Made by a program: the position numbers and the translations under genes. A stretch of DNA of 64,000 nucleotides from a phage. The notes under the pieces are model-generated. The model did not search any database and was not told the origin of the DNA. It worked only from the letters and a program-made list of their open reading frames with translations. Shown in pieces: positions 12,943-32,542 of this stretch. The stretch is from the NCBI GenBank assembly GCA_025812035.1, contig GCA_025812035.1_4719.1, one strand, 5' to 3'. Positions within the stretch are counted from its first letter, which is position 1; each line of letters starts with the position of its first letter.

Positions 12943-12990
12943 GGTTATTTCCTCGTAGTGTTAAGTGGGGACACACCTGTCCCCGAATAA

Positions 12991-13906: not shown

Positions 13907-13929
13907 TCGTTCTATAACAAACTTTTATT

Positions 13930-13952: not shown

Positions 13953-13970
13953 TTGGGTTCGGTTATTGCG

Positions 13971-14246: not shown

Positions 14247-15102
14247 GGTTTCTGTTTTCCTCGGTTTGTTGTGGTGCTAGGTCAGAGATATCCCATCGGA
14301 CATAACCGATCTCACTGATTCGCTCTGCTACCTCTTCGGTTTGCGAATTACGACTAATCATCGGTAACCATTCTCCGTGTCCGGTGATCTTGACTTCCGT
14401 AAGCTGTAAACTCATGTTCCAACGAACATCGTAAACCAACGCATAGCCAAGAGGATGAACAAGTCCATCTTGGGCGTACATCGTCAAAAGACCTCTTACA
14501 TCTTCGCTACGAAGTGATTTCATGGATGGGCGTACGCGTTGAAGTCTATTTGTGATATCGTATCCCAACTCGATGTCTTTCCAACCTGTCATGGCGTAAG
14601 GAATAACGTTACGACGACGGAGCTGATAGTTGTGAGTGGTTTCTTCGGCGGTAAGGTGTACCCAACCGAGATCGCTGTATGCGACAAACCGCACCGTATC
14701 ACCATCGATTGCAGTATGCCCATCTAACGCTGCTGCAACACCGTGGCCTGCGTAATACGGCGGAATAACGTTAATCATTTTAATACGACTTTCTTGACCG
14801 GTATGGTCAGGATCGATATGTGCGTAGAAACAATTATGGCTTACAGGGCGACCTTCCGCCATACGCCCACGGAAGACAGGGTCCTGCATTCCGAGCGGAT
14901 GGTAATACGCGAGCTGTTGCTCTTCACCTTCCCCGATTACCAACAAACGATCTTCACGACTTGGCGTACTAGGATCTTTCACTGTGATGTAACTAACAAC
15001 CGGTTTCAGGTTGTTTAAAATGTCCTCTGTAAGTTTCTCTAAATCCGATGCTGCGTAAATACGGTTAACAACGGTGTTTACAAGGTGTTTTGATAAGCTC
15101 AT
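14209..15102 (-). CDS. paralog family H protein A (unknown function)
   Basis: Shares YHPLGMQD, a second HPLGY motif and C-terminal GYVRWDISDL with 15184-16074. Confidence 0.65.
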   Translation of the reverse strand: MSLSKHLVNTVVNRIYAASDLEKLTEDILNNLKPVVSYITVKDPSTPSREDRLLVIGEGEEQQLAYYHPLGMQDPVFRGRMAEGRPVSHNCFYAHIDPDHTGQESRIKMINVIPPYYAGHGVAAALDGHTAIDGDTVRFVAYSDLGWVHLTAEETTHNYQLRRRNVIPYAMTGWKDIELGYDITNRLQRVRPSMKSLRSEDVRGLLTMYAQDGLVHPLGYALVYDVRWNMSLQLTEVKITGHGEWLPMISRNSQTEEVAERISEIGYVRWDISDLAPQQTEENRNHVDETDSKEQSL

Positions 15103-15183
15103 TTTAGATCTCTCTTTGTTAATGGTAAATAAATAACGGCATAAAAAGGGGACAACGCTGTCCCCGTGTTAGGTATTATCTGC

Positions 15184-16074
15184 TTACGGCTTCAAATCCG
15201 AAATATCCCAGCGTACGTAACCTGTGTGTTCGATATCCTCGACCAATTGCTCGGTTTGATTTTCAACACCGACAACGGGAACCCAATTCAACTGTTGGCT
15301 ACGTATACCGATGTTAACCTCGACACGCTGCAGATCATCATTCCAACGAACCCCGGCCGGTTTCACAAAACCCAGCGGATGGATAAAACTAAGATCGTCG
15401 CTGAAATCACGAAGAACGCGCAATGTATCGATGGATGAAGGGTTATCATAGCGAACAGGACGTACGCTTTGCAGTTTATCGTATACCGCTCGAGCTGCGC
15501 GCTCGTCACGCCAGGTCGTCATGTATACCGGTTTTATACCACGTTTTAGAAGATGATCGATCTGGATCGCGATGTTATCGTGAACATACATGCAGCCCTG
15601 TTCGGTTTCGGTGTTGTAACCACCATCTTCTAACCGGTTCGGATACGTCAGATGGTCTACCGTCACAGCAACTCCTTCAGCGAACGTGTTCAACGGAAGA
15701 AAACGTTGCAGACTCGTTATCGGATAATCGGGCGACATCCCAGGACGGATATGCGCCATCGTCCCCCAACTGTCAGGGAAGCCATGTCGGTATATGTATT
15801 GCCGGAATACCTCATCCTGCATCCCTAACGGATACCATCGTGCAAGCCGCTGTTGCTCACCATCCTGAATAACAAAAAGCATTTCTTTGCGATTCGGCCA
15901 TCGATGATGTTCCACGGTCAAGCCATCAACAACCGGTCTTAAATTGTTCTTGATGTGTTCTGGAAGTTTATCCACCTCTTCACGACGATAAAAACGATCG
16001 ATGACGATGATGTCAACCTTCCCATGATTGAACCAGTTCATGTTAACTCCCTCTGTGGTGCGAAAACAAAACAT
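15184..16074 (-). CDS. paralog family H protein B (unknown function)
   Basis: See A. An alternative ATG at 16041 has SD GAGGGA. Confidence 0.65.
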   Translation of the reverse strand: MFCFRTTEGVNMNWFNHGKVDIIVIDRFYRREEVDKLPEHIKNNLRPVVDGLTVEHHRWPNRKEMLFVIQDGEQQRLARWYPLGMQDEVFRQYIYRHGFPDSWGTMAHIRPGMSPDYPITSLQRFLPLNTFAEGVAVTVDHLTYPNRLEDGGYNTETEQGCMYVHDNIAIQIDHLLKRGIKPVYMTTWRDERAARAVYDKLQSVRPVRYDNPSSIDTLRVLRDFSDDLSFIHPLGFVKPAGVRWNDDLQRVEVNIGIRSQQLNWVPVVGVENQTEQLVEDIEHTGYVRWDISDLKP

Positions 16075-16333
16075 CTAATTGCTCCCGTTGTTCTTTTAAG
16101 TATGCGGGAAGCTGGTCTTCCCGTACCGTTCCGATTTCTAACATGATGTACCAGCGTTGTTCGGAAGCCTGCCATTGAAAACTGCTCTGTAAACGTAGGA
16201 TGCTAGGATCATGTACCTTGCTTGCGCTGTAACGGTTGAACCAGCCCAGGTAAGCGGCTTTCCCCTCCTCATCGGCAACGTAACGCTGCACGCTGTTCTT
16301 CCCTTTGTTTTCGTATCCTGTTGCATGTATCAT
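16043..16333 (-). CDS. hypothetical small protein (~96 aa)
   Basis: ATG at 16333 overlaps the upstream stop as ATGA. ORF track gives 16043-16390. Confidence 0.5.
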   Translation of the reverse strand: MIHATGYENKGKNSVQRYVADEEGKAAYLGWFNRYSASKVHDPSILRLQSSFQWQASEQRWYIMLEIGTVREDQLPAYLKEQREQLDVLFSHHRGS

Positions 16334-17106
16334 GCGAACGTTTCTCCTGTAACGTGTTGTGGGCGTTGCAGCATGGTAGCATCCCAGCATACCAGCTTGC
16401 TTTTCTCAAGCATCTTCCGCGCCGTATCAACGCTAACGCCAGGATGCATGACAGGTAGCCAACGTTCGTTAAGCACCTTGGCTTCCAGGCGTTGCTTGCG
16501 CTTATTGTATTGTACCTCGCTAACCCATGCGTAACCGAAAGGATGGATAACCCGTGGGTAGTAACGTTTAAGCATCATCAGTCTTTGCTGATAAAGCTTA
16601 TCGGAACCCTCACCAACGAATAAGGCAACCCGTTCCAACCGCTTGGTGTAATACGTTCCGGTGGTATGATTGATCCAACCAGGAAGCGTTCGTACATCAT
16701 TTTCGAGTGTTCCTGATACGTTATGCACTTCACCGCTATACACCGTCCCAACAACCTGATTCGTTGCGTCCACCATCGACCGTGGCAAAGCATCCGCGGT
16801 AGGATACAACCATGCATCCCCAAGCTGCTCTCCCGACGCAAGTACCCGTAATCCGCTTGCGCTCACCCGCAACGGATGCTGGCTCTTATGCGCACGCAAC
16901 TGCACCACAGATAAGTCTACCGGATGGGCGATGCAACAGCCACGCTGACGGAACAGTCCAACCTCACCATCCACCCCTTCGATCATGCTTCCTTCCGAAC
17001 CGTTCCACCAACGTTTAACCTTCACGCATTCGGCTTGCACCGTTTCAGGCAACGTTAAATAATCGTGTTCAATAAACACCACATCAAAAATCAATGCTTC
17101 TTTCAT
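16330..17106 (-). CDS. paralog family H protein C (unknown function)
   Basis: Single HPFGY motif and related C-terminus. SD AGAGGA upstream. Confidence 0.65.
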   Translation of the reverse strand: MKEALIFDVVFIEHDYLTLPETVQAECVKVKRWWNGSEGSMIEGVDGEVGLFRQRGCCIAHPVDLSVVQLRAHKSQHPLRVSASGLRVLASGEQLGDAWLYPTADALPRSMVDATNQVVGTVYSGEVHNVSGTLENDVRTLPGWINHTTGTYYTKRLERVALFVGEGSDKLYQQRLMMLKRYYPRVIHPFGYAWVSEVQYNKRKQRLEAKVLNERWLPVMHPGVSVDTARKMLEKSKLVCWDATMLQRPQHVTGETFA

Positions 17107-17191
17107 CTAAAAAGATCCTCTGTTTTTTCACGTTAATTAAACAACGTATTGATTTCTATTCGATAGCAATACGAACATCGTACGTACGCAT

Positions 17192-17215
17192 CACTTAGGT
17201 AATATAGCCGTGAAA
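17192..17215. promoter_or_regulatory. conserved 24-nt motif (copy 2; CACTTAGGTAATATAGCCGTGAAA)
   Basis: One mismatch to the consensus. About 90 nt from the start of 16330-17106. Confidence 0.45.
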
Positions 17216-17858
17216 GGATTTGTGTTACAGAAAGGGTTTTGTTGTGTTTTAAGAAGGGATGGATAGTGATGTTATCTGAAAGGAGGATTTCAAGAAAGGT
17301 CTTGATTGAAGTAGGTGGAGTAAGTGAAGAGGTGAATAAACGAGAAGGGTTAGTTTGGTTGATGTAAGATGTTATCTTGTTATTGTTTTCATGTTTATCT
17401 TAGGTTATGTCTTAATTGTTCATATTCCTGATTGTTTAAGTTGTCTTATTTATCTTGTTTATATAAATAAAATTAAATTATAAAGTCAATCAACATGCTT
17501 ATAAGTTGGATAACTCAAAAAAACCATTTGTGATACTCTTCTTCACGTTGTTCATCAGAGTATCTCGTCTATACTCATTGCATTCGTATACGACATAACC
17601 GTTATACGCTAACGCTACGCTTATAGCTTGATAACTCTAAGGATAAAAACATAAACTCGCTTCGCTCGTTTAGTTTTTCTTTTTCTTAGAGTTATCTTGT
17701 TGCTCGTCTCTAAAGGACTTCGCTCCTCCCCCGTCCCCCGAAGGGGCCGAGGTCGTGGAAATTTTACTTTCCAAATACATTTACAACATCTGTAAACTTT
17801 TACTCCAGGTACTTAATCTTATCATTAGAAATTATCAAAGAGAATAATGACAGCATAA
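17216..17858. other. large noncoding region: candidate replication origin or noncoding RNA locus
   Basis: No ORF. C-depleted purine-rich stretch, AT-rich block (17455-17490), and five or more TTATCTT-type repeats. Confidence 0.35.
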
Positions 17859-17905: not shown

Positions 17906-18799
17906 TTAATCGACAGTGTTATAACCGAATACAGCTTTACCGTAAGTGTGAGTACCGTCGGTTAACGACACCACTAGTACGTGGTTGTATGCGTCGTTAA
18001 CACCCTTGTCAGTAGACCCTGTGGTAGCTCCGTTATAGACAAAGGTAGCTGTTTGCAGGTTGGCTTTCAGCTCGTTAGTGATATCATCGCTGACACCCGT
18101 CTGCTCTTTGATCAGCGTAGTCAGGTTACCTGCCAGGCTTTCACCGATCTTGGTTTCGTTACTGGTGATCGCCTGTAAACCTGTAGTGTAGGAGCTGAAG
18201 TCTAACGGATAGGTTAACAGACGCGCTGAGGTCTTGGTACCATCACCTTCATCAACGTAGGTTAAGTTACCCAGGTTGGTAACCTTGATGATGTTAGACA
18301 GATCCAGCGTTGTGTTATAAACTTTAACTTGAACAGAGCCGTACCACGCCAATGAATCTTCTTTGGCTTCCAGGGTGATCGTCTGGATACCCGATTGCTC
18401 AAAGGTAACCGGCGTAGCTAACGTTTCGGCTTTGATGTCTTTTGCTTTATCCAGGAACTTATCACCAGATGGCGTGATCATACCGTAGCGTTTCGCTACA
18501 AGGTCAACCACATCACCGATGGTGGTGTTCGCATCAACGTTAACACGCACCGCGATCTTCTGGAACCACTTAGCCAGATCCAGACGATGGTAGGTAACAT
18601 CGCGGTTATTGAAGTAAGGAGTACCTTCACCAGGACTGAGTGTTAAAGTTGCTTCTGGAGCAGAAGCGCTTTTAGATTTAAGGACGTATTTAAGGTCGGT
18701 ATATTTAAAGCTGGCACCAGTGTCGGCGTTAAGCTGGTTGATCTCATCAACGATAAGCTGCCATGGTGTTTTTAAAGTAAGCGATACTTGAGCTGTCAT
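17906..18799 (-). CDS. probable abundant virion protein (unknown function)
   Basis: Optimised codon usage and a monocistronic layout. ORF track start at 18832 is TTG; the ATG at 18799 has SD GAGGAAG. Confidence 0.6.
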   Translation of the reverse strand: MTAQVSLTLKTPWQLIVDEINQLNADTGASFKYTDLKYVLKSKSASAPEATLTLSPGEGTPYFNNRDVTYHRLDLAKWFQKIAVRVNVDANTTIGDVVDLVAKRYGMITPSGDKFLDKAKDIKAETLATPVTFEQSGIQTITLEAKEDSLAWYGSVQVKVYNTTLDLSNIIKVTNLGNLTYVDEGDGTKTSARLLTYPLDFSSYTTGLQAITSNETKIGESLAGNLTTLIKEQTGVSDDITNELKANLQTATFVYNGATTGSTDKGVNDAYNHVLVVSLTDGTHTYGKAVFGYNTVD

Positions 18800-18854
18800 T
18801 TTCTTCCTCGATAGTTTGTACATCACTCTCAAAAGATGTAAGTGTTTACAGAAA

Positions 18855-18942: not shown

Positions 18943-19485
18943 ATGGCCTTAGACTTTAACAAAGCAGCGAAATCCCTTCTGCTCGATCTCATCAACACCA
19001 AAGCAACCCGCGCACTGTCCGAAGAAGAACTGCAGTTCGGTACTCCGACAGCATCTTCCGAACATGAAAAGAACACCGTTATCCAGCTGAATGCTGCGCC
19101 TGAAGCAGCTAACCTGCAGGGTACCTAGCAGTTCTTCTACAATCGTCTGGCTCTGTCCGAAGTTTTCGCTGACGTAACCGGTGATGTTACTTTCGAACTG
19201 CCGCACGGTACTGACAGCATTCAGGCTTCTGAGCTGGTAAGCAAGCTGGTCACCAAATTCGGTCTGGCTTCCCTGACCGGTGAAATCAATGAAGAAACCT
19301 TCCAGCTGTCTGCGGGTACTGTTGGTCAGGTAACCCTGACTGCGATCGAGGGTGGTATGGTATATACCGGCACTCTGCAGGTTGCACTGACTTATGCAGC
19401 AGCACCAAAAGACGAACTGGCAACCGTTCTGGCGAATAACGTAGCTGAAGGTTTCGAGAAACCGACCGTTAGCGTTGTTGGCTAA
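18943..19485 (+). CDS. highly codon-optimised 181-codon gene interrupted by in-frame amber codon (TAG at 19126-19128)
   Basis: SD GAGGA, ATG at 18943, frame open to the double stop TAATAA at 19483-19488 except for one TAG. No ATG in the 119 codons after the TAG. Confidence 0.6.
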
Positions 19486-19781: not shown

Positions 19782-20417
19782 TTATTCAACACTGAAACCA
19801 TTCAAGCAGATAGCTTCATAACGCTTACGTTCACGGCGTTTGCGTGCTTGCCATCCGTAAATGAATTTCTCGTCTTTCTCACGACGCTCAGCCAATTCGA
19901 TGTAATAGGTGCTCTGCATGTCCAGCATCGCATCGATGAGATAATCCTTACCGGTTGCGCCACGCTTAGCGATGTAGGCATCAAGAGCCGCCAGTGTTTT
20001 GGGACCCATTGCGCCATCAGCGTCGATATTTTTCCAGTAAGTTTGGCGGTTGTTCATGACGTTCAGATAACGCTGAAGGTTCTTAACCGGTACGGTTTTG
20101 CCTGCGTTGATGCCCAGGTCAAAGAGACGATCAGCCAAGAACACGGAACGTTTCATGACCTCATCAAGCTTCATCTTATCCCAGAAGTGGGTCTTGTAGA
20201 TGAAGAACGCCATTTCCGTGGTAAGGTTACGCATATTACCGTCCCACCCGAATTTCGTTTTCAGCGTGGTTTTGTATTGGTTGGCAAGCGCTTGCGTAAT
20301 GCCGTGGTTAGTGATTCCGCCCGAGTCATCGGGATCGTCGACGTAACCTGCTTCGATGCTAGTTTTATCATGAATGATAAATTCGCAAGTAAAATCTTTT
20401 TCAGTAATCTTGGCCAT
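19782..20417 (-). CDS. endolysin, GH108-type lysozyme with PG_binding_3 domain
   Basis: EAGYVDDPDDSGGITNHGITQ matches the GH108 N-terminal signature. DADGAMGPKTLAAL matches the peptidoglycan-binding motif. Confidence 0.8.
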   Translation of the reverse strand: MAKITEKDFTCEFIIHDKTSIEAGYVDDPDDSGGITNHGITQALANQYKTTLKTKFGWDGNMRNLTTEMAFFIYKTHFWDKMKLDEVMKRSVFLADRLFDLGINAGKTVPVKNLQRYLNVMNNRQTYWKNIDADGAMGPKTLAALDAYIAKRGATGKDYLIDAMLDMQSTYYIELAERREKDEKFIYGWQARKRRERKRYEAICLNGFSVE

Positions 20418-20542: not shown

Positions 20543-22591
20543 TCAAATACCTTTGGTTCCCTTCACGTGATGTGCAATTTCTTCAACCATTGCACGCAAC
20601 GCACGAAGCTGCTGGTCGTGTTCGTACCAACCACCCAACAGAACCCCGCTGTACACCATGGTGTCAAGACTTAACAGTCCTTTATCTGATACGTTGATCA
20701 TTTCCGGGAACTGTTCTTGAACACGCTGTGCGATGACACCGATCTTCTCTACATCAGGATCGTAGTTGTGACGGAAACGGGCAAGCCCGCTGCGCGCCAT
20801 TTCACGTAAACGTTCGCTAAGAGATTCCGGATGGTCTTTCAGGTAACGGATGTCATGTTTACTACGCTCATCTGAACGGATGTATGCGTTAGGAACATCG
20901 ATGTTACTGTTGAAGTACAGCGCGCTACCACCACCTGCAGAGTTACCCCAATAGAAGCGTGTGATCTCGCCACCACCATTTTCCGTGATGATAACATGTT
21001 TACCTAAACGCGTGCCACCATTGCCGTCAACGAAGACCAGTTTGTTTCCACTGTAAGAACCCCAGAACAAACGGGTATCGATGATGTGCGTTGCAGCGAG
21101 ACGAGCGTTACGCGGTGTAGAATACACAGTGTTAACATCTTGCTGTGCTTGCGCATCGGAAGCGATACCGTAGTTCTGTACATTACCTAACCCCACCTGC
21201 GCTTTCGTAACAGCGTGTGGGTTATCTCGACGGTTAGCGTGAGCGTTAACCAGATCGCCCGCCAGTTTTTGAATAGCCCAGTTGGTAGACTGTGGTGTCA
21301 TGTAGCGGTTCGTTGCAGAACCACCTTGCGCCTCAGCTTGGTTAGCGGTTGGGTAGTTCTCAACGCTTCCTAACCCCACTTGTGCTTTAGACACTTGGTG
21401 CGGGTTGTTCTTGTCAGCGATGTGTGCATTAAGCGGAACTAACGCAAAGGTCTCGATGGACGCTTTGGTTGTGTTCGGTGCCATTAATCGGTTAGCTGCA
21501 ACACCGGCACGCGCTTCATCCTCAGACGCCATTGGGTAGTCTTGCACGTTACCCAACCCAACCTGCGCTTTGGTTACTCTGTGTGGGTTGTTGTAATCGG
21601 CTTTATGTGCGTTAAGCGGAATCAATGCGAACTGTTCGATCGCTGCAACGGTACGTAGCGGCGTCATGAAACGGTTGTTCGCGGTTCCGCCCTTCGCCTC
21701 GCTATCCGAAGCGGTTGGGAAGTTATCAACGTTCCCAAGGTTAACCTGTGCTTTGGTGACGCTATGCGGGTTATCTTTACGGTTAGCGTGAGCATCGACT
21801 AGGTCACCAGCCAGTTTAGCGATTGCCCATCCAACCGTTTGTGCGGTCATGTATCGGTCGGGTGCGGTACCGGCTTCTGACTCCGCCTTGTTTGCGGTAG
21901 GATAGTTCTGTACATTACCTAACCCAACTTGGGCTTTGGTGGTTTCGTGCGGGTTATCGGTACGGTTAGCATGCGCGTAATGCAGATCGGTAAGATTTTT
22001 ATCCGCTGCTTGCATGTCTTTGCGTAACTGATCGATTGCTGCCCAGAGACGGTTATCGGACGCAGCGTCACCGATAAGTATCGCGGCTTTCAGCGAATAG
22101 ATCGCTAAGCAAAGATGTTCGGTACCGTAGATAGCACTAACGTGGTGGATGTGTGGTTCAGGCGGATAAAGTTCCGGTTTGTTCTTGATATCATCCCAGT
22201 TGATCGGTCGATCGTCAAGTTTGAGTTCTTCGATAGCCTGATATAACGCGTCAATAAGACTTACGTAAACACCACCGATGATACGATAGTCGTTAACTAA
22301 CGTACCCTCGATGTCGTCGTTGATGATGGCGATGGCTGCACAGATTTCTTTACCAGCGTAAAGTGTAGCGTCCTGATACAAGAAGATGGGTTTATAATCC
22401 ACGCCTCGCACCAGTGTCTTACCGGTAAGCTTTTCGGTGATAACCAGACTTTCGGTGAAGAACGGTCCGCCATCGAGGGCGTAACATTTATTCTCGGTTC
22501 GTGGAACGGTATGCTCTTCACCAACGATGTGGTTGCTATCGAGTGTACCGGTCCAGTCCTCGGGGTACTTCAGGGTAATTGGTGTTGACAT
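20543..22591 (-). CDS. tail fibre protein with C-terminal intramolecular chaperone (peptidase S74-like) domain
   Basis: Five or more repeats of NPHxVTKAQVGLGNVxNY. C-terminal SDERSKHDI and IGVIAQRVQEQFPEMI match the self-cleaving chaperone domain of endosialidase-type fibres. Confidence 0.8.
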   Translation of the reverse strand: MSTPITLKYPEDWTGTLDSNHIVGEEHTVPRTENKCYALDGGPFFTESLVITEKLTGKTLVRGVDYKPIFLYQDATLYAGKEICAAIAIINDDIEGTLVNDYRIIGGVYVSLIDALYQAIEELKLDDRPINWDDIKNKPELYPPEPHIHHVSAIYGTEHLCLAIYSLKAAILIGDAASDNRLWAAIDQLRKDMQAADKNLTDLHYAHANRTDNPHETTKAQVGLGNVQNYPTANKAESEAGTAPDRYMTAQTVGWAIAKLAGDLVDAHANRKDNPHSVTKAQVNLGNVDNFPTASDSEAKGGTANNRFMTPLRTVAAIEQFALIPLNAHKADYNNPHRVTKAQVGLGNVQDYPMASEDEARAGVAANRLMAPNTTKASIETFALVPLNAHIADKNNPHQVSKAQVGLGSVENYPTANQAEAQGGSATNRYMTPQSTNWAIQKLAGDLVNAHANRRDNPHAVTKAQVGLGNVQNYGIASDAQAQQDVNTVYSTPRNARLAATHIIDTRLFWGSYSGNKLVFVDGNGGTRLGKHVIITENGGGEITRFYWGNSAGGGSALYFNSNIDVPNAYIRSDERSKHDIRYLKDHPESLSERLREMARSGLARFRHNYDPDVEKIGVIAQRVQEQFPEMINVSDKGLLSLDTMVYSGVLLGGWYEHDQQLRALRAMVEEIAHHVKGTKGI

Positions 22592-22604
22592 AACCTGGAG
22601 GTCC

Positions 22605-25208
22605 TTATAACGTGACTGTACCTAATTTGGTTGTCTTATTGAGATTAATGACAGAGATCTGGGTATCGCTGGTCGTAATCGTTCCGATATTAACGCGCTG
22701 TCCTTTATCATCCTCTTGCTTGTGGATGGTTAACTCCAGCTCTAACTGGTTACCGTTAGGAACAACGGAAACGTACCATGTTTTATTACCCGGGGAGCTA
22801 TTATAGTCTTTTAGGTTATAATGGCCTTTAGGTAGGGTCATGACTTTACCAGCAAACAGGCAGGTGATATCTTCGTTGATGTAGATATCGTAGCCGGAAG
22901 CGGCAACGACCGTAGAAACCATATAACGATTTTTAACAGCGATGGCTGTATATTCCGCAACGGAATTACCGACAGCGTTAAAGACCTGACCGCCATTACC
23001 CATCACCGTAGAGACGGCGGTATCAACATAACCGATTCCCCACACCGGATGTACGTTCCAGCGATAGCCGCTTGTCTGTAGATAAGCATACATGCCTTCG
23101 AATGCGATGGTTGTCCAGTTCCCATCGTTCTGTCGCCCAGCTCGGAACTGATAAGTGTTCTGGTTCCCTGCGGACTGACGAGAATACGGAACATGTCCCG
23201 CAACAAGCCATCCATCACTCACCTTCTTGTAAGCTAATACACCCCAGGCAGCATCCTGACTACCGATATTTGTTGAATCGGGTTCTTCGACATAACCCAG
23301 CAATTTGGTTACGCCCGTCACCGTAATAGCACCTTTACGTGCGGATACGGTAACCTCTGCAGCGATTCGTCCATGTACGCGTGTGCTGGTATTACAACCA
23401 GCAACAAACAGGATACAGGGCGCGTTTGTACCATCTGGAGGCACTGCTAACGCATGTCGCCACTGACTTACCCCCGATAACTTAGATCCTGTATATGCGT
23501 TCCACACAAGCTGACCGCCCGCCTGCAGATTCGCTGCGGTTATGCTGATGGCTTCACCGGATGGTGCAAGTTTGGTTGCATCGTAACCGATTTTGCTTGT
23601 TAGGACCGCATCGGTTAAATAAGACCCGCTAACCACCGTATTGTCATCGCTTAAATGCACGGTTAGGAAAGGTAACGACATTTGACCCGTTCTAACCACC
23701 ACGTTGTTGGAAGGCGGAAAACCGTAAACATTAATACCCTCGCCCTGATAATGGTAATTGAGGTTCCAGTCATAGGTCACTAGACGAGCCTCAAAATTAC
23801 CCTGTCCGCCAGCCGTACGCGAGTTAACAAAAACCTTGTTTTTAGAAAAGAAACCCAGGTAACCATGGGACGCGAGTGCACCAACGACGCGATCCCCGAC
23901 GCTTTTCCAGTTTGAATCGTACTGTCTTCCACCGGTCGGGCCGAGTTTGGCGAGTTCGTCGAACACGTTTCCAGAGAAACCTTTGATGGTGTACGATCTC
24001 GCTTGGGGGGCGGATAAGTTATCGTTTTGGATAAGAGCTACCTGACCACGTTCGTTGATTTCGATATTCCCGGTACCGTTACCCGAACCCCATTGCCAGA
24101 AACCATCGTTATATGCACTTGTCCCCTCCGTTGTGTTAGAAGGTCCTATCCAGTCAATACCGCTGCTGGTTGACGTGTAAGTCGATTGTCCAGCGCCTGG
24201 GTTCATGCTGTAACTGTTGTTGGCGGTTTCAAAATCCAGATAAAACTGATGCAGCCCATTTTTATTCTTGTTATTGCGGTTGTTCGTCCACCATGCCGAA
24301 GCAATCAGAATGCGTGCTTTAGTGCCTTTGGTTGCTGCGAGCAGACGAATCTGAGCACGCCAGACGGTTTGACCGATCCCGTCAGAAGGGAAATCGTTCG
24401 CAGTTATGCGGTTGCAGACAATCATCTCGGCGCTGTTGCTTATTGCCGTTCCTTCTATCGTTCTACCGCTGATGTTCGTAAGTTGCGTAGCCGCCACACT
24501 ACCACCGTTAGGTCCGATGGAAGATTTGGTTACGGTATAAACGTTGATGTAAAGTTTATAGCCGTTGCCGTTCGCAATAGCAATATAGATTTTACCGTTG
24601 ATTTCCCAGCAACAGACATTAGGTGAGGTGTCTATGAAGCTGGCGAGACTACCATCGAGGTACGCTGCTATATGCTTGCTTGAATCAAACGTCCCGTCGG
24701 TCAATGCAATAAACATTTTAGGGCTGCTACCGTCTTCAAAAGCAGCTTGACCTAACATGATACCGTTCTGGTGGCAGTATATCACAGTAGGAATACGATC
24801 GAGCGTCGCGGGCTCATAACGACGACTGGTTGGGATAACTTCGGTGATTTGCCCGTTTTGATCTGTTTTACAGATAACGTAGTAAACCCCTTTCTTTACG
24901 CTGTTCGTTGCTGAACGCAATAACACGATGGTACCGTCCGATTCACGACATACGCCGTAACGACGGTATTTGTCGTTTAGGGAGATAGCACCATCAGCGG
25001 AGCCTTCAATTGCCAGAGGAAAATAACTTTGGTCCCCAACCTGTTCGATATCGGTTACGCTGATATCGATGTATTTTTCCATCTCGGTGTTGAACTCAGC
25101 GGTACTGTAGGCCCCAAGATCACTCGCTTTTAGTCCCGTTGGGTTGTCGCGACTGGCGATACGCGTATTAACGCTACTCACCAGTTCGCTGAACTTTTTC
25201 ATTGCCAT
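22605..25208 (-). CDS. putative tail fibre / receptor-binding protein (867 aa)
   Basis: N-terminal SELVSSVNTRIASRDNP motif shared with the neighbouring small fibre genes. Lies within the fibre cluster. Confidence 0.5.
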   Translation of the reverse strand: MAMKKFSELVSSVNTRIASRDNPTGLKASDLGAYSTAEFNTEMEKYIDISVTDIEQVGDQSYFPLAIEGSADGAISLNDKYRRYGVCRESDGTIVLLRSATNSVKKGVYYVICKTDQNGQITEVIPTSRRYEPATLDRIPTVIYCHQNGIMLGQAAFEDGSSPKMFIALTDGTFDSSKHIAAYLDGSLASFIDTSPNVCCWEINGKIYIAIANGNGYKLYINVYTVTKSSIGPNGGSVAATQLTNISGRTIEGTAISNSAEMIVCNRITANDFPSDGIGQTVWRAQIRLLAATKGTKARILIASAWWTNNRNNKNKNGLHQFYLDFETANNSYSMNPGAGQSTYTSTSSGIDWIGPSNTTEGTSAYNDGFWQWGSGNGTGNIEINERGQVALIQNDNLSAPQARSYTIKGFSGNVFDELAKLGPTGGRQYDSNWKSVGDRVVGALASHGYLGFFSKNKVFVNSRTAGGQGNFEARLVTYDWNLNYHYQGEGINVYGFPPSNNVVVRTGQMSLPFLTVHLSDDNTVVSGSYLTDAVLTSKIGYDATKLAPSGEAISITAANLQAGGQLVWNAYTGSKLSGVSQWRHALAVPPDGTNAPCILFVAGCNTSTRVHGRIAAEVTVSARKGAITVTGVTKLLGYVEEPDSTNIGSQDAAWGVLAYKKVSDGWLVAGHVPYSRQSAGNQNTYQFRAGRQNDGNWTTIAFEGMYAYLQTSGYRWNVHPVWGIGYVDTAVSTVMGNGGQVFNAVGNSVAEYTAIAVKNRYMVSTVVAASGYDIYINEDITCLFAGKVMTLPKGHYNLKDYNSSPGNKTWYVSVVPNGNQLELELTIHKQEDDKGQRVNIGTITTSDTQISVINLNKTTKLGTVTL

Positions 25209-25220
25209 TATTCACCTCGA

Positions 25221-25706
25221 TTAAATAGGCGAGTCGGGAAGCTGACCGTCATCGATCTCGATGGTGGCCACCTTACGTGTTGCAGCAAGATGCGATGTAC
25301 CCTGGACTTTGTTCCAGGTACCGATACGCATGGTGTTTTTGTAGTTGCTATCGCTATCGTTCAGCGTGTAAACAAAACCACGATCGGTTACGGCAAGATA
25401 GATCCAGCCCACAGACTCACTGATACCAGACACATCCAAAGTCGTTGCTGGTACTGTCCCTATCATCGTGTTGTATTCCGCTGTACCTTGACCAATACTG
25501 ATCTGCCCGTTGCTGTAACTGGCTACCGGAAGCGTTTTATTTCGACTGAAGAAAAGAAACGGAAGGTAACGCTGAGTAACAAGCGGTGCAAGTTTAGGGG
25601 CCACTTCGGTCTTAACGTAGACATTTGTTTGTGCTGGCGTTACCTCGTGAGGGTTCTTTTGGGTGAGATACGCTCCCCATTCAGAAAGCAATATTGATAG
25701 CTTCAT
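25221..25706 (-). CDS. small tail-fibre-family protein
   Basis: N-terminal KNPHEVTPAQ motif related to the fibre repeats. Confidence 0.5.
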   Translation of the reverse strand: MKLSILLSEWGAYLTQKNPHEVTPAQTNVYVKTEVAPKLAPLVTQRYLPFLFFSRNKTLPVASYSNGQISIGQGTAEYNTMIGTVPATTLDVSGISESVGWIYLAVTDRGFVYTLNDSDSNYKNTMRIGTWNKVQGTSHLAATRKVATIEIDDGQLPDSPI

Positions 25707-25710
25707 GTGG

Positions 25711-26226
25711 TTACCCCATGTAACGTTTTTGGCCGAGGATGAAGACTTTGTTGAATACCACTGAAGTGATTCCTGATGCGTTACAGCTCACCTGCCCGAC
25801 GCGAATAGCTGTTGACGTATCGACCCCAGCACTACTCTGCCAGATCCAATCGATCGATCCGTCTTTCTGGCGAATGAAAAGATAACCGGTCTTGTTCGCC
25901 CAGTCGGAAGTAAGATTTTTGATGTCTAGCGTTCCTTTCGCCAGAATATAGTCGGTACCCGCAATCATGACAGGTATTTCAGGATACGAGATTACCGTAC
26001 CGCTAGCGGTAACGTTGCTGATACGATCGTTACGAATATCAGTGCAATCACCGAAATACGCTACGGGGAGTATCCCCTTGGGTAGTTTTTGTTCGATTCT
26101 CGTATCGATCGTGTTTTTATCGGGTGCGTCTATTTGCGCTGCGGTGACTTGGTTGGGGTTATCCTTCCTTGTGTACCATGTCGTCATGCGAGCACCCAAC
26201 TCACTCATTTTTGTGCCCATTTTCAC
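25711..26226 (-). CDS. small tail-fibre-family protein
   Basis: N-terminal RKDNPNQVTAAQI motif. Paralogous to 25221-25706. Confidence 0.5.
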   Translation of the reverse strand: MKMGTKMSELGARMTTWYTRKDNPNQVTAAQIDAPDKNTIDTRIEQKLPKGILPVAYFGDCTDIRNDRISNVTASGTVISYPEIPVMIAGTDYILAKGTLDIKNLTSDWANKTGYLFIRQKDGSIDWIWQSSAGVDTSTAIRVGQVSCNASGITSVVFNKVFILGQKRYMG

Positions 26227-26278
26227 GTCCTATCGAAAAAATAAAAAGATGGAAAGGTGGGCAGAACCCACCCATCCG

Positions 26279-28432
26279 TTATAACGTCTCGAAGTCTTTT
26301 GCCTTGATGACCGCGTTGAAGTTGGCAAGGAATTCCTTAAGCAATGCTTGGAAAACATCGCGGAACGCCGCGTTCGTCTTCAAGCTGGTTAAATAGTCGT
26401 TCTTAAGGTAATCGCTTAGCTTACCGATCTTCTGCATCTTCACGCCATCATCGTTCTCTCCGGGTTCTTGGCTATTGATATTAGCCCATTTGATCCCTTC
26501 GAGATCACCATCGGCAAGGAAGTTCGCTGGTGTCTCATCATCGTTCAGGATTTTGATCGTATCGCTGGATTCAATACCACCGTAAGCTTCCAGAAGCTGG
26601 TTGATGGCCAACTTATTGACGTTGATTGAACCATTAACACCATCGATACCGATACCAGTACCTGTGATGGATGTCGCCGAAAGATCGATCGGTCCGGTTA
26701 ACTTACCCCCATTGATAGGAAGCGCACCGACTTGCTCGGCAGTGTGGGTGTGGTTGGCTAACGCAGCAAACGCCGCAATCGACTTGTAGGTCGAGTACGG
26801 TGTCATGTATGTCGTCTGGTTAGTCCTGTCGGCAGCTTGCGTGTCGGTGGCAACAGCAAAGTCCTGCACGTTGCTGAGACCGACCTGCGCTTTCGTTACT
26901 CCATGCGGGTTGCTCTTATCGACAACGTGTGCCGCAAAACCGTCACCCGCTAAAGCGATGATTGCTGCTTTTGTCGCAGCTGGTGTCATATAGCGGTTGG
27001 TCGCCACACCTGTTTCTGCTTCCTCATCAGAAGCAACAGGATAGTTCTGTACACTGCCTAACCCAACCTGTGCTTTGGTTACCCTGTGTGGGTTCTCGGT
27101 ATTTGCGATGTGACTACTGAACCCTTGACCAGCCATTTGCTCGATTGCGTAACGAACAAGTATTGGTGTCATGTACTTGTTGTTAACCTGACCGTCGATA
27201 GCTTCTTGGGTAGTAGCAACCCCAAAGTTCTGCACGCTTCCCAGACCGACTTGGGCTTTTGTCACCCCATGCGGGTTATTGGTGTTGCCAATGTGTTCGG
27301 TTACGGTCGGGGTGATTAACGCTGCGATGGCGGCTGCTGTAGTTGCAGGCGTCATGTATTTGTTGTTAGCGACACCGGCACCGGCTTCTACGTTGGATGC
27401 TACACCGTAGTTCTCAACGCTTCCTAACCCCACCTGAGCCTTGGTGACCCCATGTGGGTTGCTTTTGTTTCCGGTGTGGCTTGTCAGCGAAGCATTAACG
27501 TTATCGATACGCGTACTTAAGCCATCAGTGATTGCTTTGATTGCCGCTCGTACGCCCGCAGGAGTCGTGTACAGGTTAGTGGCTGTACCGGTAATGGTTG
27601 TATTACTGTCGGCTACACCGTAGTTCTCGACGTCCCCGAGTCCCACCTGGGCTTTCGTAACCTTGTGTGGGTTGTTGCGGTTGCTGATGTGCGCTGCGGC
27701 ACTATCGCCACTAAGGTTAGCGATCATCTTACGTGTCATCGCCAACGTCATGTACAGATTTTCACCGACGGTTTCCAGATCGTTCTCGGTCGCCGTTGTG
27801 AAGTTCTGCACATTCCCCAACCCCACCTGAGCCTTGGTTACTCCGTGGGGATTATCACGTCGATTCTCATGCTGCACTAACGCAGTCATTGCTTTATTGA
27901 ACCCTTCTTCAAGCGGTTCTTTCAATGACTCGATTGCAGCTACCACATCGTCCCACGTCATCGTGTCGGTTTCGACATTATGTTGGTGGTTGATTGGTGG
28001 GAATACGGAAGGAACGTCAGCAACCTTTTCCCAGAACGTGACACGAGGATCGTAAAGGTTGTTGGCTAAAACGTTAAGAATCTGTTGTTGATCAAGTGTA
28101 AACTCACCCCCCAGTGAATAGTAGTTCAGTTGCAACTGTCCACTGAATGCGGTGTCCAACAGCATGATGGAACCGTATAATTCCAGGCCGGTCAGCGCAG
28201 CCATGGCACGGAAGGGGTGAGTGCATAAAAAGTCAACGCCTTCTTCCAGATACGCGTTTGTTTCAGGGTTGTAGATCCTTAACCCATTACGAAAATATGG
28301 CGCGTATTTAGGAACGAGAAAGTTAAATCCGGTCCCCGTGGAAGGACGGACAGTGACGAGTTCTTCTGGAACCCATGCGCCATCCAAATTCCCCTGCGGG
28401 TTATACGGAAGGCGTTTAATTTCATCTGTCAT
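26279..28432 (-). CDS. tail fibre protein (repeat-containing)
   Basis: Eight or more NPH(G/K)VTKAQVGLG(S/N)V(E/Q)N(Y/F) repeats, homologous to those in 20543-22591. Confidence 0.75.
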   Translation of the reverse strand: MTDEIKRLPYNPQGNLDGAWVPEELVTVRPSTGTGFNFLVPKYAPYFRNGLRIYNPETNAYLEEGVDFLCTHPFRAMAALTGLELYGSIMLLDTAFSGQLQLNYYSLGGEFTLDQQQILNVLANNLYDPRVTFWEKVADVPSVFPPINHQHNVETDTMTWDDVVAAIESLKEPLEEGFNKAMTALVQHENRRDNPHGVTKAQVGLGNVQNFTTATENDLETVGENLYMTLAMTRKMIANLSGDSAAAHISNRNNPHKVTKAQVGLGDVENYGVADSNTTITGTATNLYTTPAGVRAAIKAITDGLSTRIDNVNASLTSHTGNKSNPHGVTKAQVGLGSVENYGVASNVEAGAGVANNKYMTPATTAAAIAALITPTVTEHIGNTNNPHGVTKAQVGLGSVQNFGVATTQEAIDGQVNNKYMTPILVRYAIEQMAGQGFSSHIANTENPHRVTKAQVGLGSVQNYPVASDEEAETGVATNRYMTPAATKAAIIALAGDGFAAHVVDKSNPHGVTKAQVGLSNVQDFAVATDTQAADRTNQTTYMTPYSTYKSIAAFAALANHTHTAEQVGALPINGGKLTGPIDLSATSITGTGIGIDGVNGSINVNKLAINQLLEAYGGIESSDTIKILNDDETPANFLADGDLEGIKWANINSQEPGENDDGVKMQKIGKLSDYLKNDYLTSLKTNAAFRDVFQALLKEFLANFNAVIKAKDFETL

Positions 28433-29868: not shown

Positions 29869-30774
29869 TTATGCTGCGTATAACGTCAGATAACCTTCGA
29901 TGAGCGTATTCATCACACTGAGTTGGAGCACGACAGCTTTACTAACATCTGTACGTACACCGAATGGCAGTGCTTTGAATTGCTCTGGATCGGTTATTAC
30001 TTTCGCATTCTGTAAGTTGAGTGGTCCAGGTATTGCTGACAATACCCAGAGATCGTCCGTCGTAAGGTCGTCGATCTCTTCAGAGAGACCTAATTGCAAC
30101 GCGTTCATTTCCGCAATCAGTGCTTCCGATCGCGTATCACCTGAGGTTAACGTATACCCATCAGTGAGCGACGCTAGGACACCAGCTGACACGAACCAGT
30201 TGTACGAAACAATAGCACCTGGGAGTTTATCGCTATCTCGATCGATGAGATAATTCAGCCCAGCCAACATATTGTTGCGAATGAGGTTGTTAAGGTCGTT
30301 ATGTCCTGAAGTTAACTCAACAAGTAATTCACCAACCCATACTTGGTTACTGGGTTTAGGTGTTATCGCAATATGTATCGGTGATTTGGACTTATCCAGA
30401 TTCGCGTCGACGATTTCGGTTTTGTCGAGAAGGATGCCGTACGTTGATGCCAGGACAGGCAGTATCTCAGAAACCTTGGTTAACGCATCTAAGGTTTCGA
30501 TCTCGACAGGCCAGCGATGCTGTCCACCAGACCAAATACCCAGTTTGCCAAGATCGATGCGGTTATAATAGATGTCGACAGAGTTCACCAGCCCTGAACC
30601 AGGCTGGGGATGCACGGTTAACTTACTATTACGTTTGTACCCGGTACTTTCAGAAGCCTCACCGATAATCAGTTTATCCAGCGTCACGCCTCGAGCATCG
30701 AAATCGCTATGTTTTCGAATCAAACGAAAGAGAATTTCTTTCGATTCTAACCCCAGGATTTCACTGTACTCCAT
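29869..30774 (-). CDS. virion-module protein, paralog family V (member 1)
   Basis: YYNRIDLGKL motif shared with 31691-32542 and 32553-33488. Confidence 0.55.
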   Translation of the reverse strand: MEYSEILGLESKEILFRLIRKHSDFDARGVTLDKLIIGEASESTGYKRNSKLTVHPQPGSGLVNSVDIYYNRIDLGKLGIWSGGQHRWPVEIETLDALTKVSEILPVLASTYGILLDKTEIVDANLDKSKSPIHIAITPKPSNQVWVGELLVELTSGHNDLNNLIRNNMLAGLNYLIDRDSDKLPGAIVSYNWFVSAGVLASLTDGYTLTSGDTRSEALIAEMNALQLGLSEEIDDLTTDDLWVLSAIPGPLNLQNAKVITDPEQFKALPFGVRTDVSKAVVLQLSVMNTLIEGYLTLYAA

Positions 30775-31690: not shown

Positions 31691-32542
31691 TCAGTTATAT
31701 TGCATCAACAGGATACCGCCGTAGTTCGTGCAGTAATCTTGGCTAAGCGTAACGATAACAGCGTTAGCGAACGCAGGGTTAACAGGATAACCCTGTGCGA
31801 TAAGCTCTGTTGTTTTACCGGTTGCGAGTACGGTGGCCCCGTAAAGGTTGTTTTCGTCTTCACGACCGTTATAAACCCATGGGCTCGGTGCAACATTGTT
31901 GAATAAGCTAACCAACGCGCTTAGGTTACCACCAACTTTTAACCCAGCAAGATCGGAACGGATAGCTGTGCAGTCTATAGCGTAACTGTAGACCAACGCC
32001 TGGATACGGTTTGCGGTGTAGTACGGGAAATTGAGACCAGCCATCACAGTGGTCTTCATCATTCCCGCAATATCGCGTGCGCCATCGAGGAGATAGAACG
32101 TAACGCTCCCCGTCCAAGCCAATCCGGTTGTTTTCAATTCTACGACGTGCGGGAACGGGTACGTATCTCCTCGCACAATCGGAGAATCGACACAACTATC
32201 CTGATCGATAACGATTCCGTACGTTGATTGGATCAGAGGGATAAGGTCATGTGTTGTTTTAACGCCAGCATCGATAGCGAGCTTCGGTTCCATCCCCAAG
32301 AAGAAGTCTTGGATAGGAATACGGTCGTACCATACGTAGCTGCTTTCGCGATACAACGCTGGTGTGACTGTTGCTGAAGGTGATACCTTAGCACGAGTAT
32401 TTCGGTTATACGCATGGTTTCCGTTTTCAGCAACATCCGTGATATCAAGCGCGTCGAAGTTAAAGTCGAAGTCAGGATTGGCGGCCTGAATAAGCTCGGC
32501 GACCAGTACTTTAGGACTTTTGTTTAACAATTTCTGACTCAT
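31691..32542 (-). CDS. virion-module protein, paralog family V (member 2)
   Basis: VWYDRIPIQ, LAWTGSV and QDYCTNYGG motifs shared with 32553-33488. Confidence 0.55.
   Translation of the reverse strand: MSQKLLNKSPKVLVAELIQAANPDFDFNFDALDITDVAENGNHAYNRNTRAKVSPSATVTPALYRESSYVWYDRIPIQDFFLGMEPKLAIDAGVKTTHDLIPLIQSTYGIVIDQDSCVDSPIVRGDTYPFPHVVELKTTGLAWTGSVTFYLLDGARDIAGMMKTTVMAGLNFPYYTANRIQALVYSYAIDCTAIRSDLAGLKVGGNLSALVSLFNNVAPSPWVYNGREDENNLYGATVLATGKTTELIAQGYPVNPAFANAVIVTLSQDYCTNYGGILLMQYN

Follow-up and report, generated by a model that had tools for sequence, protein, structure and literature searches.

A Goslar-type tail-fibre operon in a jumbo phage, with a candidate host-specificity cassette in gp026

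Among the nucleus-forming jumbo phages (Chimalliviridae), the E. coli phage Goslar (vB_EcoM_Goslar, NC_048170) carries a row of genes, gp029-gp028-gp027-gp026-gp025-gp024 (HOV27_gp024-029), in which the annotation of gp025 already includes a Peptidase_S74 domain; gp25 and gp29 are listed as tail fibre in the virion proteome. The Goslar receptor is listed as LPS 'GluII', with galU, hldE and waaF among the screen hits, and the cryo-EM maps of Goslar do not resolve the fibres or the peripheral baseplate. In the Goslar literature examined, no description was found of paralogy among gp026, gp027 and gp028 or of a gp026 cassette. In phiKZ, also of the Chimalliviridae, the peripheral fibres gp131, gp133, gp134 and gp135 (PMC13250141) are paralogues with common N-terminal helical segments, and in both the phiKZ and the Goslar-type clusters one paralogue has a C-terminal or central β-propeller that is thought to contact the host. 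No report of NPH-repeat fibres in phiKZ was found in the literature examined. Outside this family, SPbeta YomR, Erwinia PhiEaH1 YomR and many PHROG tail-fibre families have the same repeat motif as the fibres described below, in the same tandem shaft arrangement; annotated relatives are labelled YomR, tail fibre or virion structural protein.

The locus considered here lies in a 64-kb stretch of phage DNA, called the window below, and is a system of this known kind, a close relative of that of Goslar. The five minus-strand ORFs at 20543-28432 are real and are orthologues of Goslar gp029-gp025 (93-98% amino acid identity), with the GH108 lysin gene, gp024, next. Gene order and lengths are the same, and the region as a whole is 93.2% identical to Goslar at the nucleotide level over 100% coverage. 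At the protein level, identity is 98.4% for gp025, 97.7% for gp026, 92.6% for gp027, 95.9% for gp028 and 93.2% for gp029. The difference of ~7% of nucleotides is unevenly spread: identity rises to 98-99% in a patch at 23400-24300 and is lowest, 83-85%, across the gp029 repeat region. Matches to PHROG families, together with detection of the Goslar orthologues in purified virion preparations, bear out the initial annotation of these genes as tail-fibre and host-recognition genes. We read the region as the operon for tail fibres and host recognition in a nucleus-forming jumbo phage of the Goslar type, with specificity probably governed by the gp026 core. Its features are collected in Table 1.

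Table 1. Features of the operon and the adjoining lysin gene (window positions; aa, residues of the protein).
Feature	Position	Strand	Basis or remark
Fibre E, Goslar gp029 orthologue, 717 aa	26279..28432	-	ORF, PHROG, six motifs
Fibre E N-terminal anchor domain, aa 1-179	27896-28432	-	
Fibre E six 61-aa NPH repeats, aa 180-554	26771-27895	-	
Fibre E C-terminal tip, aa 555-717	26282-26770	-	contains HTHTAEQVGALPINGGKLTG motif
gp028-like small RBP-type protein, 169 aa	25711..26220	-	ATG at 26220
gp028-like layout: helical N-terminal module, then β-domain aa ~66-161			half-repeat RKDNPNQVTAAQ in N-terminal module
gp027-like small protein, 161 aa, gp028 paralogue	25221..25706	-	N-terminal module with QKNPHEVTPAQ
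gp026-like protein, 867 aa, candidate primary receptor-binding protein	22605..25208	-	
gp026 conserved N module, aa 1-80	24969-25208	-	
gp026 hypervariable all-β core with β-propeller, aa 81-760	22929-24968	-	
gp026 conserved RBP-like C module, aa 761-867	22608-22928	-	
Fibre A, Goslar gp025 orthologue, 682 aa	20543..22591	-	ORF, Pfam, orthology
Fibre A N-terminal anchor, aa 1-198	21998-22591	-	
Fibre A five 61-aa repeats, aa 199-503	21083-21997	-	
Fibre A short β-rich tip, aa 504-572	20876-21082	-	
Fibre A S74 intramolecular chaperone, aa 573-682	20546-20875	-	predicted autocleavage site Ser573 (SDERSK)
GH108 + PG_binding_3 muramidase, Goslar gp024 orthologue	19782..20417	-	Pfam

The two large fibres, A and E, are genuinely paralogous (37% identity across 483 aa, E 1e-91). 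Both carry in tandem a unit of 61 aa (183 nt), H-x5-NPH-x-VTKAQVGLGNVxN...YMTP, with eleven invariant columns. Fibre A holds exactly five copies (spacing 61, 61, 61, 61) and fibre E exactly six (60, 71, 61, 61, 61), figures that replace an earlier description of a ~40-aa repeat in 5-8 copies. Back-translated NPHxV(T/S)KAQV has 11 matches in all, every one within these two genes, against 0.00 expected from 100 shuffles. A profile search with the repeat reached 16,707 cluster representatives; the NPHxVTKAQVGLGNV unit is therefore a very common, uncurated phage-fibre repeat. Phage_fiber_2 (PF03406), the profile first proposed as a check, gave no match to either fibre or to three concatenated repeats, even at E<=10, and the repeat has no match to any Pfam or NCBIfam model or to a PDB chain. 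Instead, fibre nature is supported by matches to PHROG tail and tail-fibre families (2163, 13857, 11029, 2712 and others, with four to six matched stretches each), of which phrog_2163 reaches E 1e-147 with fibre E alongside several tail-fibre PHROGs.

Only fibre A ends in an S74 intramolecular chaperone, as had been suggested from the sequence; no S74 domain appeared in a Pfam scan of fibre E. Peptidase_S74 (PF13884) matches residues 573-631 of fibre A over profile positions 1-56 of 58, at 26.1 bits against a gathering cut-off of 22, and the Ser-x4-Lys pair is intact; the match is recorded as weak in orthologues too. The domain stands at the extreme C-terminus (aa 573-682 of 682), after shaft and tip, a position that it has in common with the S74 domains of K1F endosialidase, T5 pb1 and the 6f45 fibre. 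The motifs are likewise common to these proteins: S573-D-E-R-S-K578 aligns with S-D-R-R-I-K (SSDRRIK) of the long tail fibre 6f45_A, and GVIAQRVQ aligns with GLIAQEVE of the same chain, so that S-D-x-R-x-K and G(V/L)IAQ are conserved. By analogy with endoNF and T5 pb1, we take Ser573 and Lys578 to be the catalytic Ser-Lys dyad. The overall sequence match to known S74 proteins is nevertheless weak (26 bits; PDB E 0.043), and the domain follows a very short tip of ~70 aa in place of a large β-helix or endosialidase. Among the listed Goslar virion mass-spectrometry peptides, gp25 shaft peptides and the extreme C-terminal peptide of gp29, ATDFETL, are present, and the two testable chaperone-region peptides, DHPESLSER and AMVEEIAHHVK, are absent. 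The gp25 pattern, resting on these two chaperone peptides, is compatible with the chaperone being shed from the mature virion protein.

The three middle genes belong elsewhere. A degenerate NPxxVTxAQ occurs once near the N-terminus of each of their proteins and nowhere else in the window, so the single related N-terminal motif reported earlier is confirmed. By profile comparison, the fibre-repeat motif is recognized in gp028 (88% probability, E 3e-6), weakly in gp027 (53%) and not in the 867-aa gp026. Judged from sequence comparison, gp028, gp027 and gp026 form a separate paralogous family rather than a set of fibre paralogues; of the proposed five-gene family, the kinship of the two fibres stands and the inclusion of the middle three does not. 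The trio shares a helical N-terminal module containing the degenerate half-repeat, and gp028 and gp026 (gp027 less clearly) also share a C-terminal RBP/TssK-like β-domain. The gp027 and gp028 families align by hhalign with 97.2% probability (E 3.8e-11, ~114 columns), the aligned part of gp027 covering the N-terminal module and the first part of the β-domain. No PHROG or Pfam family matched the gp027-like protein, which differs from Goslar gp027 by 12 nonsynonymous and 11 synonymous codons. Because all homologues of the gp028-like protein begin MGTK..., translation probably starts at ATG 26220 and not at GTG 26226 (171 aa).

The folds of these operon proteins are established at the level of structural models. 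In those models, the β-domain with its N-terminal helix resembles the siphophage RBP / TssK shoulder-type domain, as known from lactococcal p2 ORF18, the phage 1358 RBP and TssK. This likeness extends over only ~100 residues at ~10% identity, the neck and head arrangement of the p2 RBP is absent, and gp026 has in addition a large propeller insertion. That insertion, ~680 aa between the two conserved modules, is modelled with a lectin/glycosidase-type β-propeller; the gp026 model is of moderate confidence (pLDDT 72.7), and the propeller matches are generic, at ~10% identity. Among the structural neighbours of the propeller are numerous glycoside hydrolases and a phage endosialidase; neither catalytic nor sugar-binding residues were identified in gp026.

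Comparison with relatives places the variation in this insertion. In one relative, L003, identity to the window is 95-96% for both fibres and the lysin, whereas for gp026 (protein P0022, a divergent core allele) it is 52% overall and ~41% in the core, and DNA homology is lost only at window positions 22926-24865. In a second, L008, fibres A and E, gp027 and gp028 are 94-99% identical, against 65% for gp026 and ~57% for its core, with the break at 23100-24176. In two independent relatives, then, the fibres are 94-96% identical and DNA homology breaks only inside the gp026 core. Since this is the sole operon segment replaced between otherwise near-identical phages, the gp026 insertion is, on sequence grounds, the most likely primary determinant of specificity. 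The window's own cassette allele is represented by P0012 (94% identical); P0012 and the divergent P0022 both take their names from Salmonella Enteritidis assemblies, so that no correlation of allele with host is demonstrable. Fibre A has a local variable patch in its tip, aa 521-560, which in L008 is 72% identical against ~97% elsewhere, and the fibres may thus also contribute to specificity. L005 and L006 are more distant relatives; their gp025-type fibres cease to be homologous just past the last repeat (aa ~500) and have tips without S74, in place of which either an Invasin_D3 domain or a Phage_tail_APC chaperone, the latter separate, occurs. The gp026/027/028 gene block is kept in every relative examined.

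All six Goslar orthologues, gp024-gp029, were detected by mass spectrometry in purified virion preparations, although these also held chimallin and PhuZ, so that detection alone is no proof of incorporation into the virion, especially for the lysin. Median estimates of copies per virion were 87 for gp25, 75 for gp29, 14 for gp28, 14 for gp27, 13 for gp26 and 76 for gp24; such LFQ values are good to about +/-50%, and those for gp26-gp28 fit 6, 12 or 18 copies. The abundance of gp024 bears on the absence of a holin. As noted at the outset, the GH108 endolysin is directly adjacent to the fibre genes: both Glyco_hydro_108 (E 5.6e-20) and PG_binding_3 (E 2.4e-19) pass their cut-offs, phrog_315 endolysin matches at E 1.7e-39, and the NCBIfam model 'holin-associated muramidase', at 78 bits, falls short of its cut-off of 240. 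Apart from an antisense ORF inside the lysin gene, no ORF with a hydrophobic segment adjoins it, and the nearest real membrane-protein ORFs lie at 776-1734. Because gp024 was detected in Goslar virion preparations at about 76 copies and the phiKZ lysin gp144 is a structural neck protein, the simpler reading of a lysin without a holin would be a virion-borne enzyme. In L003-L007 the lysin gene closes the block, following either gp025 or gp026 (in L008 the contig stops short of this point); co-located with the operon, the lysin may itself be carried on the virion.

Taken with these data, a plausible arrangement is that the two fibres are trimers, whose N-terminal domains of ~180-200 aa would dock on the peripheral baseplate. 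Each would continue into a repeat shaft, with six units in the gp029-like and five in the gp025-like fibre, and then into differing tips. The gp025-like fibre would be folded by its S74 chaperone, predicted to cleave itself at Ser573 via Ser573/Lys578, and the gp029-like fibre would retain its own C-terminus in the virion. The gp026 propeller probably binds or processes the LPS outer core, Goslar's reported receptor, which fits a carbohydrate-binding propeller.

Several other readings were weighed against this one. The initial annotation held that the DNA-level repeats could promote recombination, with all five genes forming one fibre family and receptor-binding modules being shuffled between fibres and phages. 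The repeats are indeed present in two genes of the same operon, one 27-nt exact match joins those genes, and in L005 and L006 the fibres part company after the last repeat, with different tips. However, whole units are only 33-67% identical in DNA, the longest exact matches between repeats are only 20-27 nt, and Tandem Repeats Finder reports no 183-nt array. In Goslar, L003 and L008 alike, each unit is matched best by its positional orthologue (78-95%, against 33-67% for other units), copy number is the same in the window and Goslar, and gene lengths of 682 and 717 aa are essentially constant in L003 and L008 (the S74 fibre has 681 aa in L008). The homology breaks of close relatives sit, moreover, in the repeat-free gp026 core, and the middle three are no paralogues of the fibres. 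Since every unit keeps its positional orthologue, repeat-driven module swapping is not supported, and we consider it improbable. A less remote alternative, though still rather unlikely, is that the tips of the repeat fibres are the primary receptor binders and gp026 is an accessory virion enzyme (e.g. a glycosidase) or a secondary binder, diversified under a different selective pressure. Such a role would suit the classic anchor-shaft-tip layout of gp025 and gp029, their roughly six times greater abundance in virions than gp026, the variable patch in the gp025 tip and the enzymes among the propeller's neighbours. Against it, the tips are 94-98% conserved across phages with three very different gp026 cores, and likeness to true RBPs is seen in gp028 and in the C-terminal domain of gp026.

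The assembly of the trio raises a further question, namely whether gp026, gp027 and gp028 form three homotrimers or co-assemble 1:1:1 through their N-terminal half-repeat modules, in the manner of a phiKZ fibre base. Co-assembly, which we regard as unlikely, would account for the near-equal copy numbers (13, 14, 14, about six-fold below the fibres), for shared helical modules of low pLDDT as monomers in paralogous proteins and for conservation of the gene block in every relative examined; in phiKZ, three copies of gp131 join gp133, gp134 and gp135 through similar N-terminal segments at 12 sites, and the trio's copy numbers would fit about 12 sites. Conversely, the structural neighbours p2 RBP and TssK assemble as homotrimers, the LFQ error allows 6, 12 or 18 copies, and no sequence homology to phiKZ gp131-135 was detected. 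Proteins of the gp131 type consist of an N-terminal segment and a 7-bladed propeller, and phiKZ gp131 is absent among the matches listed in solved-structure searches with gp026; unlike the phiKZ peripheral fibres, the Goslar-type N-terminal module contains the fibre half-repeat. Least probable is that gp026, gp027 and gp028 are purely architectural proteins of the peripheral baseplate and take no part in receptor recognition. In favour, all three are virion proteins of low copy number, TssK, which they resemble, is a baseplate component, and large parts of the peripheral baseplate of Goslar and phiKZ still have no assigned proteins; replacement of a 680-aa core would nevertheless be unexpected where neighbouring genes are 94-99% identical, and the lectin/sialidase-type propeller fold also argues against it.

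Near-identical phages thus differ in the β-propeller core of gp026 and not in the repeat-bearing fibres, and on the preferred reading this core sets specificity. By analogy with phiKZ, a bolder and rather doubtful extension is that gp026, gp027 and gp028 make up one hetero-oligomeric receptor-binding unit, a branched fibre joined via the half-repeat modules, with one strand from each chain going into a pseudo-repeat layer. If so, that layer would stack onto, or mimic, the 61-aa repeat of the gp025 and gp029 shafts, and a single exchangeable gp026 β-propeller cassette would set LPS-core specificity for the whole jumbo phage.

ORF calling in the window recovered the five minus-strand reading frames of the fibre cluster exactly where the initial annotation had placed them. 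Over 100% of its length, the region aligns at 93.2% identity with the nucleus-forming jumbo phage (chimallivirus) Escherichia phage vB_EcoM_Goslar. Save for a replaced segment at 12.5-17.5 kb, the window runs collinear with Goslar positions ~43-50,000; the orthologues of gp024-gp029 also have the same lengths as in Goslar. S74-chaperoned fibres are textbook material and the cluster is the orthologue of an annotated Goslar locus; thus, the finding as originally worded is ordinary. The gp028-like frame, opened mechanically at GTG 26226, probably starts at an ATG six nucleotides downstream, as its homologues all begin MGTKMSEL. Because chimalliviruses transcribe with their own RNA polymerases, a sigma-70 promoter and terminator scan was uninformative (6 promoter-like sites, fewer than the 11.3 in shuffles).

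Coordinates of the fibre operon and its surroundings, with amino-acid identity of the orthologues to Goslar
Feature	Position	Strand	Length (aa)	Identity to Goslar
Segment replaced or strongly diverged	12537-17493
DUF7941 'fibre cloud' gene	17906-18832	-
gp023 homologue	18943-19485	+
Amber TAG in gp023 homologue	19126-19128	+
Lysin, gp024 orthologue	19782-20417	-		94.8%
Fibre A, gp025 orthologue	20543-22591	-	682	98.4%
Fibre A tip patch, aa 521-560	20912-21031	-
gp026 orthologue	22605-25208	-	867	97.7%
gp026 core, aa 81-760	22929-24968	-
DNA homology lost in L003	22926-24865
DNA homology lost in L008	23100-24176
Patch of raised identity to Goslar	23400-24300
gp027 orthologue	25221-25706	-		92.6%
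gp028 orthologue	25711-26220	-	169	95.9%
Fibre E, gp029 orthologue	26279-28432	-	717	93.2%
DUF7941 'fibre cloud' gene	29869-30774	-
DUF7941 'fibre cloud' gene	31691-32542	-

Both large fibres do contain the repeats described initially, but with a period of 183 nt (61 aa) instead of ~40 aa and in five and six copies instead of 5-8; the spacings are 61, 61, 61 and 61 in fibre A and 60, 71, 61, 61 and 61 in fibre E. A six-frame motif scan of the 64-kb window placed all 14 occurrences of NPxxV(T/S)xAQ inside the fibre block: five in fibre A, six in fibre E and, close to the N-terminus, one in each middle ORF, in agreement with the single related motif ascribed to these genes. The back-translated pattern NPHxV(T/S)KAQV matched 11 times against 0.00 expected (100 shuffles), and alignment of the 11 units gave 11 invariant columns (H, NPH, KAQV, L, V and A). 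Fibres A and E are paralogous (37% identity over 483 aa, E 1e-91), each comprising an N-terminal domain of ~180-200 aa, a repeat shaft and a C-terminal end unrelated between the two, and both match many PHROG families (tail, tail fibre, virion structural protein; E down to 1e-147). The assignment of the repeat to Phage_fiber_2 failed in a Pfam scan, even at E<=10; no other Pfam family and no NCBIfam model matched it, and neither the two fibres nor the repeat profile found a match in PDB sequence and profile searches. The repeat is very common: a profile built from all 11 units matched the representatives of 16,707 clusters (50% identity) at E<=1e-3 and still 822 at the stricter E<=1e-30, and single proteins carry as many as ~29 copies. 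When ten unrelated repeat-bearing proteins were scanned with Pfam for tip domains, almost all were domain-free and S74 occurred in one. We flag this fibre repeat, with more than 16,000 clusters, as lacking both a Pfam family and a solved structure.

The repeated DNA was initially proposed to act as a recombination substrate that shuffles receptor-binding modules. The sole point in favour is that the homology of gp025-type fibres from distant relatives ends right after the last repeat. Within the clade, by comparison, the best match of every unit (11/11) is its positional orthologue, at 78-95% identity, in Goslar and in L003 and L008, two relative loci with the same operon. Repeat-mediated shuffling or gene conversion was therefore rejected, the units showing no sign of gain, loss, shuffling or conversion. 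Fibre lengths are the same in Goslar and L003, and fibre A of L008 has 681 aa against 682; thus, the number of repeat units is essentially unchanged. Whole units share 33-67% DNA identity with one another; the longest exact match between the two fibre genes is 27 nt, those inside the individual genes are 23 and 20 nt, and the copies are too divergent for Tandem Repeats Finder, which reported no 183-nt array. The more distant loci L005 and L006 retain the block gp028-gp027-gp026-lysin, with the two fibres side by side upstream; the fibre tips differ, in that S74 is absent, a Phage_tail_APC chaperone is encoded by a gene of its own and there is an end of the Invasin_D3/Big_1 type.

Comparison of the relatives at the sequence level shows the repeat fibres as an apparently conserved scaffold and the gp026 core as the part that differs between near-identical phages. 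Homologues of gp026 in public assemblies are all ~865 aa long, with identities from 98% down to 34%. The modules at the two ends, N (aa 1-80) and C (aa 761-867), hold at 85-100% identity in close relatives, and the core falls into discrete levels of 83-98%, ~57% and 41%. In L003 (GCA_014829495.1, contig VNCB01000001.1, 236,335 bp, from a Salmonella Enteritidis assembly), identity is 95-96% for both fibres and the lysin, 90.5% for gp028, 83% for gp027 and 52% for gp026; in L008, both fibres, gp027 and gp028 are 94-99% identical and gp026 65%. The patch of raised identity between the window and Goslar reaches 98-99% against a background of ~93%. A correlation of gp026 allele with host was abandoned, since Salmonella Enteritidis assemblies are the source of both the allele in the window and the divergent L003 protein (P0022). 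The gp027-like gene, second most divergent protein in L003, differs from Goslar at 12 nonsynonymous versus 11 synonymous codons; in its neighbours, synonymous differences outnumber nonsynonymous ones by 123 to 11 or 82 to 20. These codon counts suggest relaxed or diversifying selection beside the gp026 cassette.

The idea of a single five-gene fibre family held for the two large fibres, whereas the three middle genes form a separate family. Profile comparison aligned the gp027 and gp028 families over ~114 columns (97.2% probability, E 3.8e-11) and gp028 residues 64-167 with gp026 residues 756-861 (94.9%, E 4.7e-8), the latter supported by PHROG 3573 as well. The N-termini of all three share a helical module of ~55 aa with NPxxVTxAQ. 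Against the first half of the fibre repeat, similarity of this module was supported for gp028 (88%, E 3e-6), weak for gp027 (53%) and undetected for the gp026 module on its own. Fold matches to the RBP-like β-domain were Lactococcal phage p2 RBP (8.4), phage 1358 RBP (7.6), the cyanophage A-1(L) long tail fibre (6.9), Haloferax tailed virus 1 fibre gp42 (5.4) and TssK (5.1). Relatives by full-length fold come from many jumbo phages, as uncharacterised "virion structural proteins", and the 350-kb Rak2/121Q/GAP32 group contains sequence homologues at 23-27% identity. The best PDB match of gp026 in a sequence search was at chance level (E 0.27), and homology to phiKZ gp131 was detected neither by sequence nor by fold ranking. 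In the accessible literature, no description was found of the trio's paralogy with an RBP-like domain or of the gp026 core as a cassette differing between near-identical phages.

Quantitative mass spectrometry (MS) of purified Goslar virion preparations lists all six proteins, gp024-gp029, at median copies of 87 (gp25), 75 (gp29), 76 (gp24), 14 (gp28), 14 (gp27) and 13 (gp26), with a stated accuracy of ~+/-50% (doi 10.64898/2026.04.21.720040). In this preprint of 2026, tail fibres and peripheral baseplate are unresolved, and the authors caution that chimallin and PhuZ were also present in the same preparation (doi 10.64898/2026.04.21.720040). The trio of gp026, gp027 and gp028 may form either three homotrimers or one hetero-oligomer; the latter is suggested by their 13:14:14 stoichiometry and by phiKZ gp131/133/134/135 as a precedent.

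Peptidase_S74 was confirmed by Pfam in fibre A only (residues 573-631, 26.1 bits against a cut-off of 22). The closest solved sequence to its C-terminus is 6f45_A, the C-terminal part of a long tail fibre, in which SSDRRIKKDIK...GLIAQEVE aligns with RSDERSKHDIR...GVIAQRVQ of fibre A. A Ser and a Lys five residues on form the autocleavage dyad in endoNF and T5 pb1; as both align with 6f45_A, the dyad is conserved in fibre A. Among the Goslar MS peptides listed, gp25 shaft peptides and the extreme C-terminal ATDFETL of gp29, which lacks S74, are present, and the chaperone-region tryptic peptides DHPESLSER and AMVEEIAHHVK, the only two within the listed alphabetical range, are absent. The absence of these two peptides would fit a released chaperone. 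Just upstream of the predicted cleavage site, the fibre A tip patch is 72% identical to L008, against ~97% over the remaining fibre, and may be a second, minor specificity hotspot.

The lysin carries GH108 and PG_binding_3 domains and no N-terminal hydrophobic segment, and a hydrophobicity search found no credible membrane-protein ORF beside it, as expected from the initial report of a missing holin. It closes the structural block in every relative examined. Given this last position, its ~76 copies in Goslar preparations and the phiKZ lysin gp144, a bona fide structural neck protein, it may be a virion-associated peptidoglycan hydrolase, instead of or besides a lysis enzyme; the contamination by chimallin and PhuZ leaves this role no more than plausible.

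DUF7941 genes lie on both sides of the operon, as in Goslar; therefore, the whole ~15-kb neighbourhood is a host-recognition region. Goslar gp023 is the most abundant of these proteins (~2,100 copies per virion), and codon 62 of its homologue here is an in-frame amber (TAG) in place of the CAG (Gln) of Goslar. Apart from this codon the gene stays in frame, at 87% identity; this gene alone among 47 compared has an internal stop, and no tRNA that might act as a suppressor is encoded in the window. The stop may reflect a sequencing error, a natural amber mutant or read-through. The replaced segment is ~2 kb longer than in Goslar, with gp015-gp021 homologues 38-72% identical and flanks at 89-93% nucleotide identity. 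Assemblies labelled Salmonella enterica (Enteritidis, Panama) contain complete Goslar-like genomes and many fragments (L003; P0012, P0022, P0181), which suggests that Salmonella isolates, too, are infected by Goslar-like phages or harbour them persistently. Public data contain a far wider diversity of Goslarvirus than the single phage in the phage collection.

From the perspective of mechanism, fibres A and E, presumably trimeric, probably form an abundant conserved scaffold on the peripheral baseplate, with gp025 maturing through S74-assisted folding and then self-cleavage. The gp026/gp027/gp028 proteins would be low-copy RBP/TssK-like units anchored through conserved N and C modules, and the gp026 propeller core would be the exchangeable specificity element. 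These structural statements are all at the level of models, and oligomeric states, docking, cleavage and receptor binding are inferred. According to a genome-wide screen, the Goslar receptor is the LPS outer core ("GluII"; hits galU, hldE and waaF), a carbohydrate target that suits a lectin- or glycosidase-type propeller. To our knowledge, the receptor-binding protein of Goslar has not yet been assigned, although its receptor has just been mapped, and the fibres and peripheral baseplate are the parts of the Goslar and phiKZ virions left unresolved by cryo-EM. The comparison of relatives singles out the ~680-aa propeller core of gp026, with its conserved flanks, as a concrete candidate, open to testing, for engineering the host range of nucleus-forming jumbo phages.
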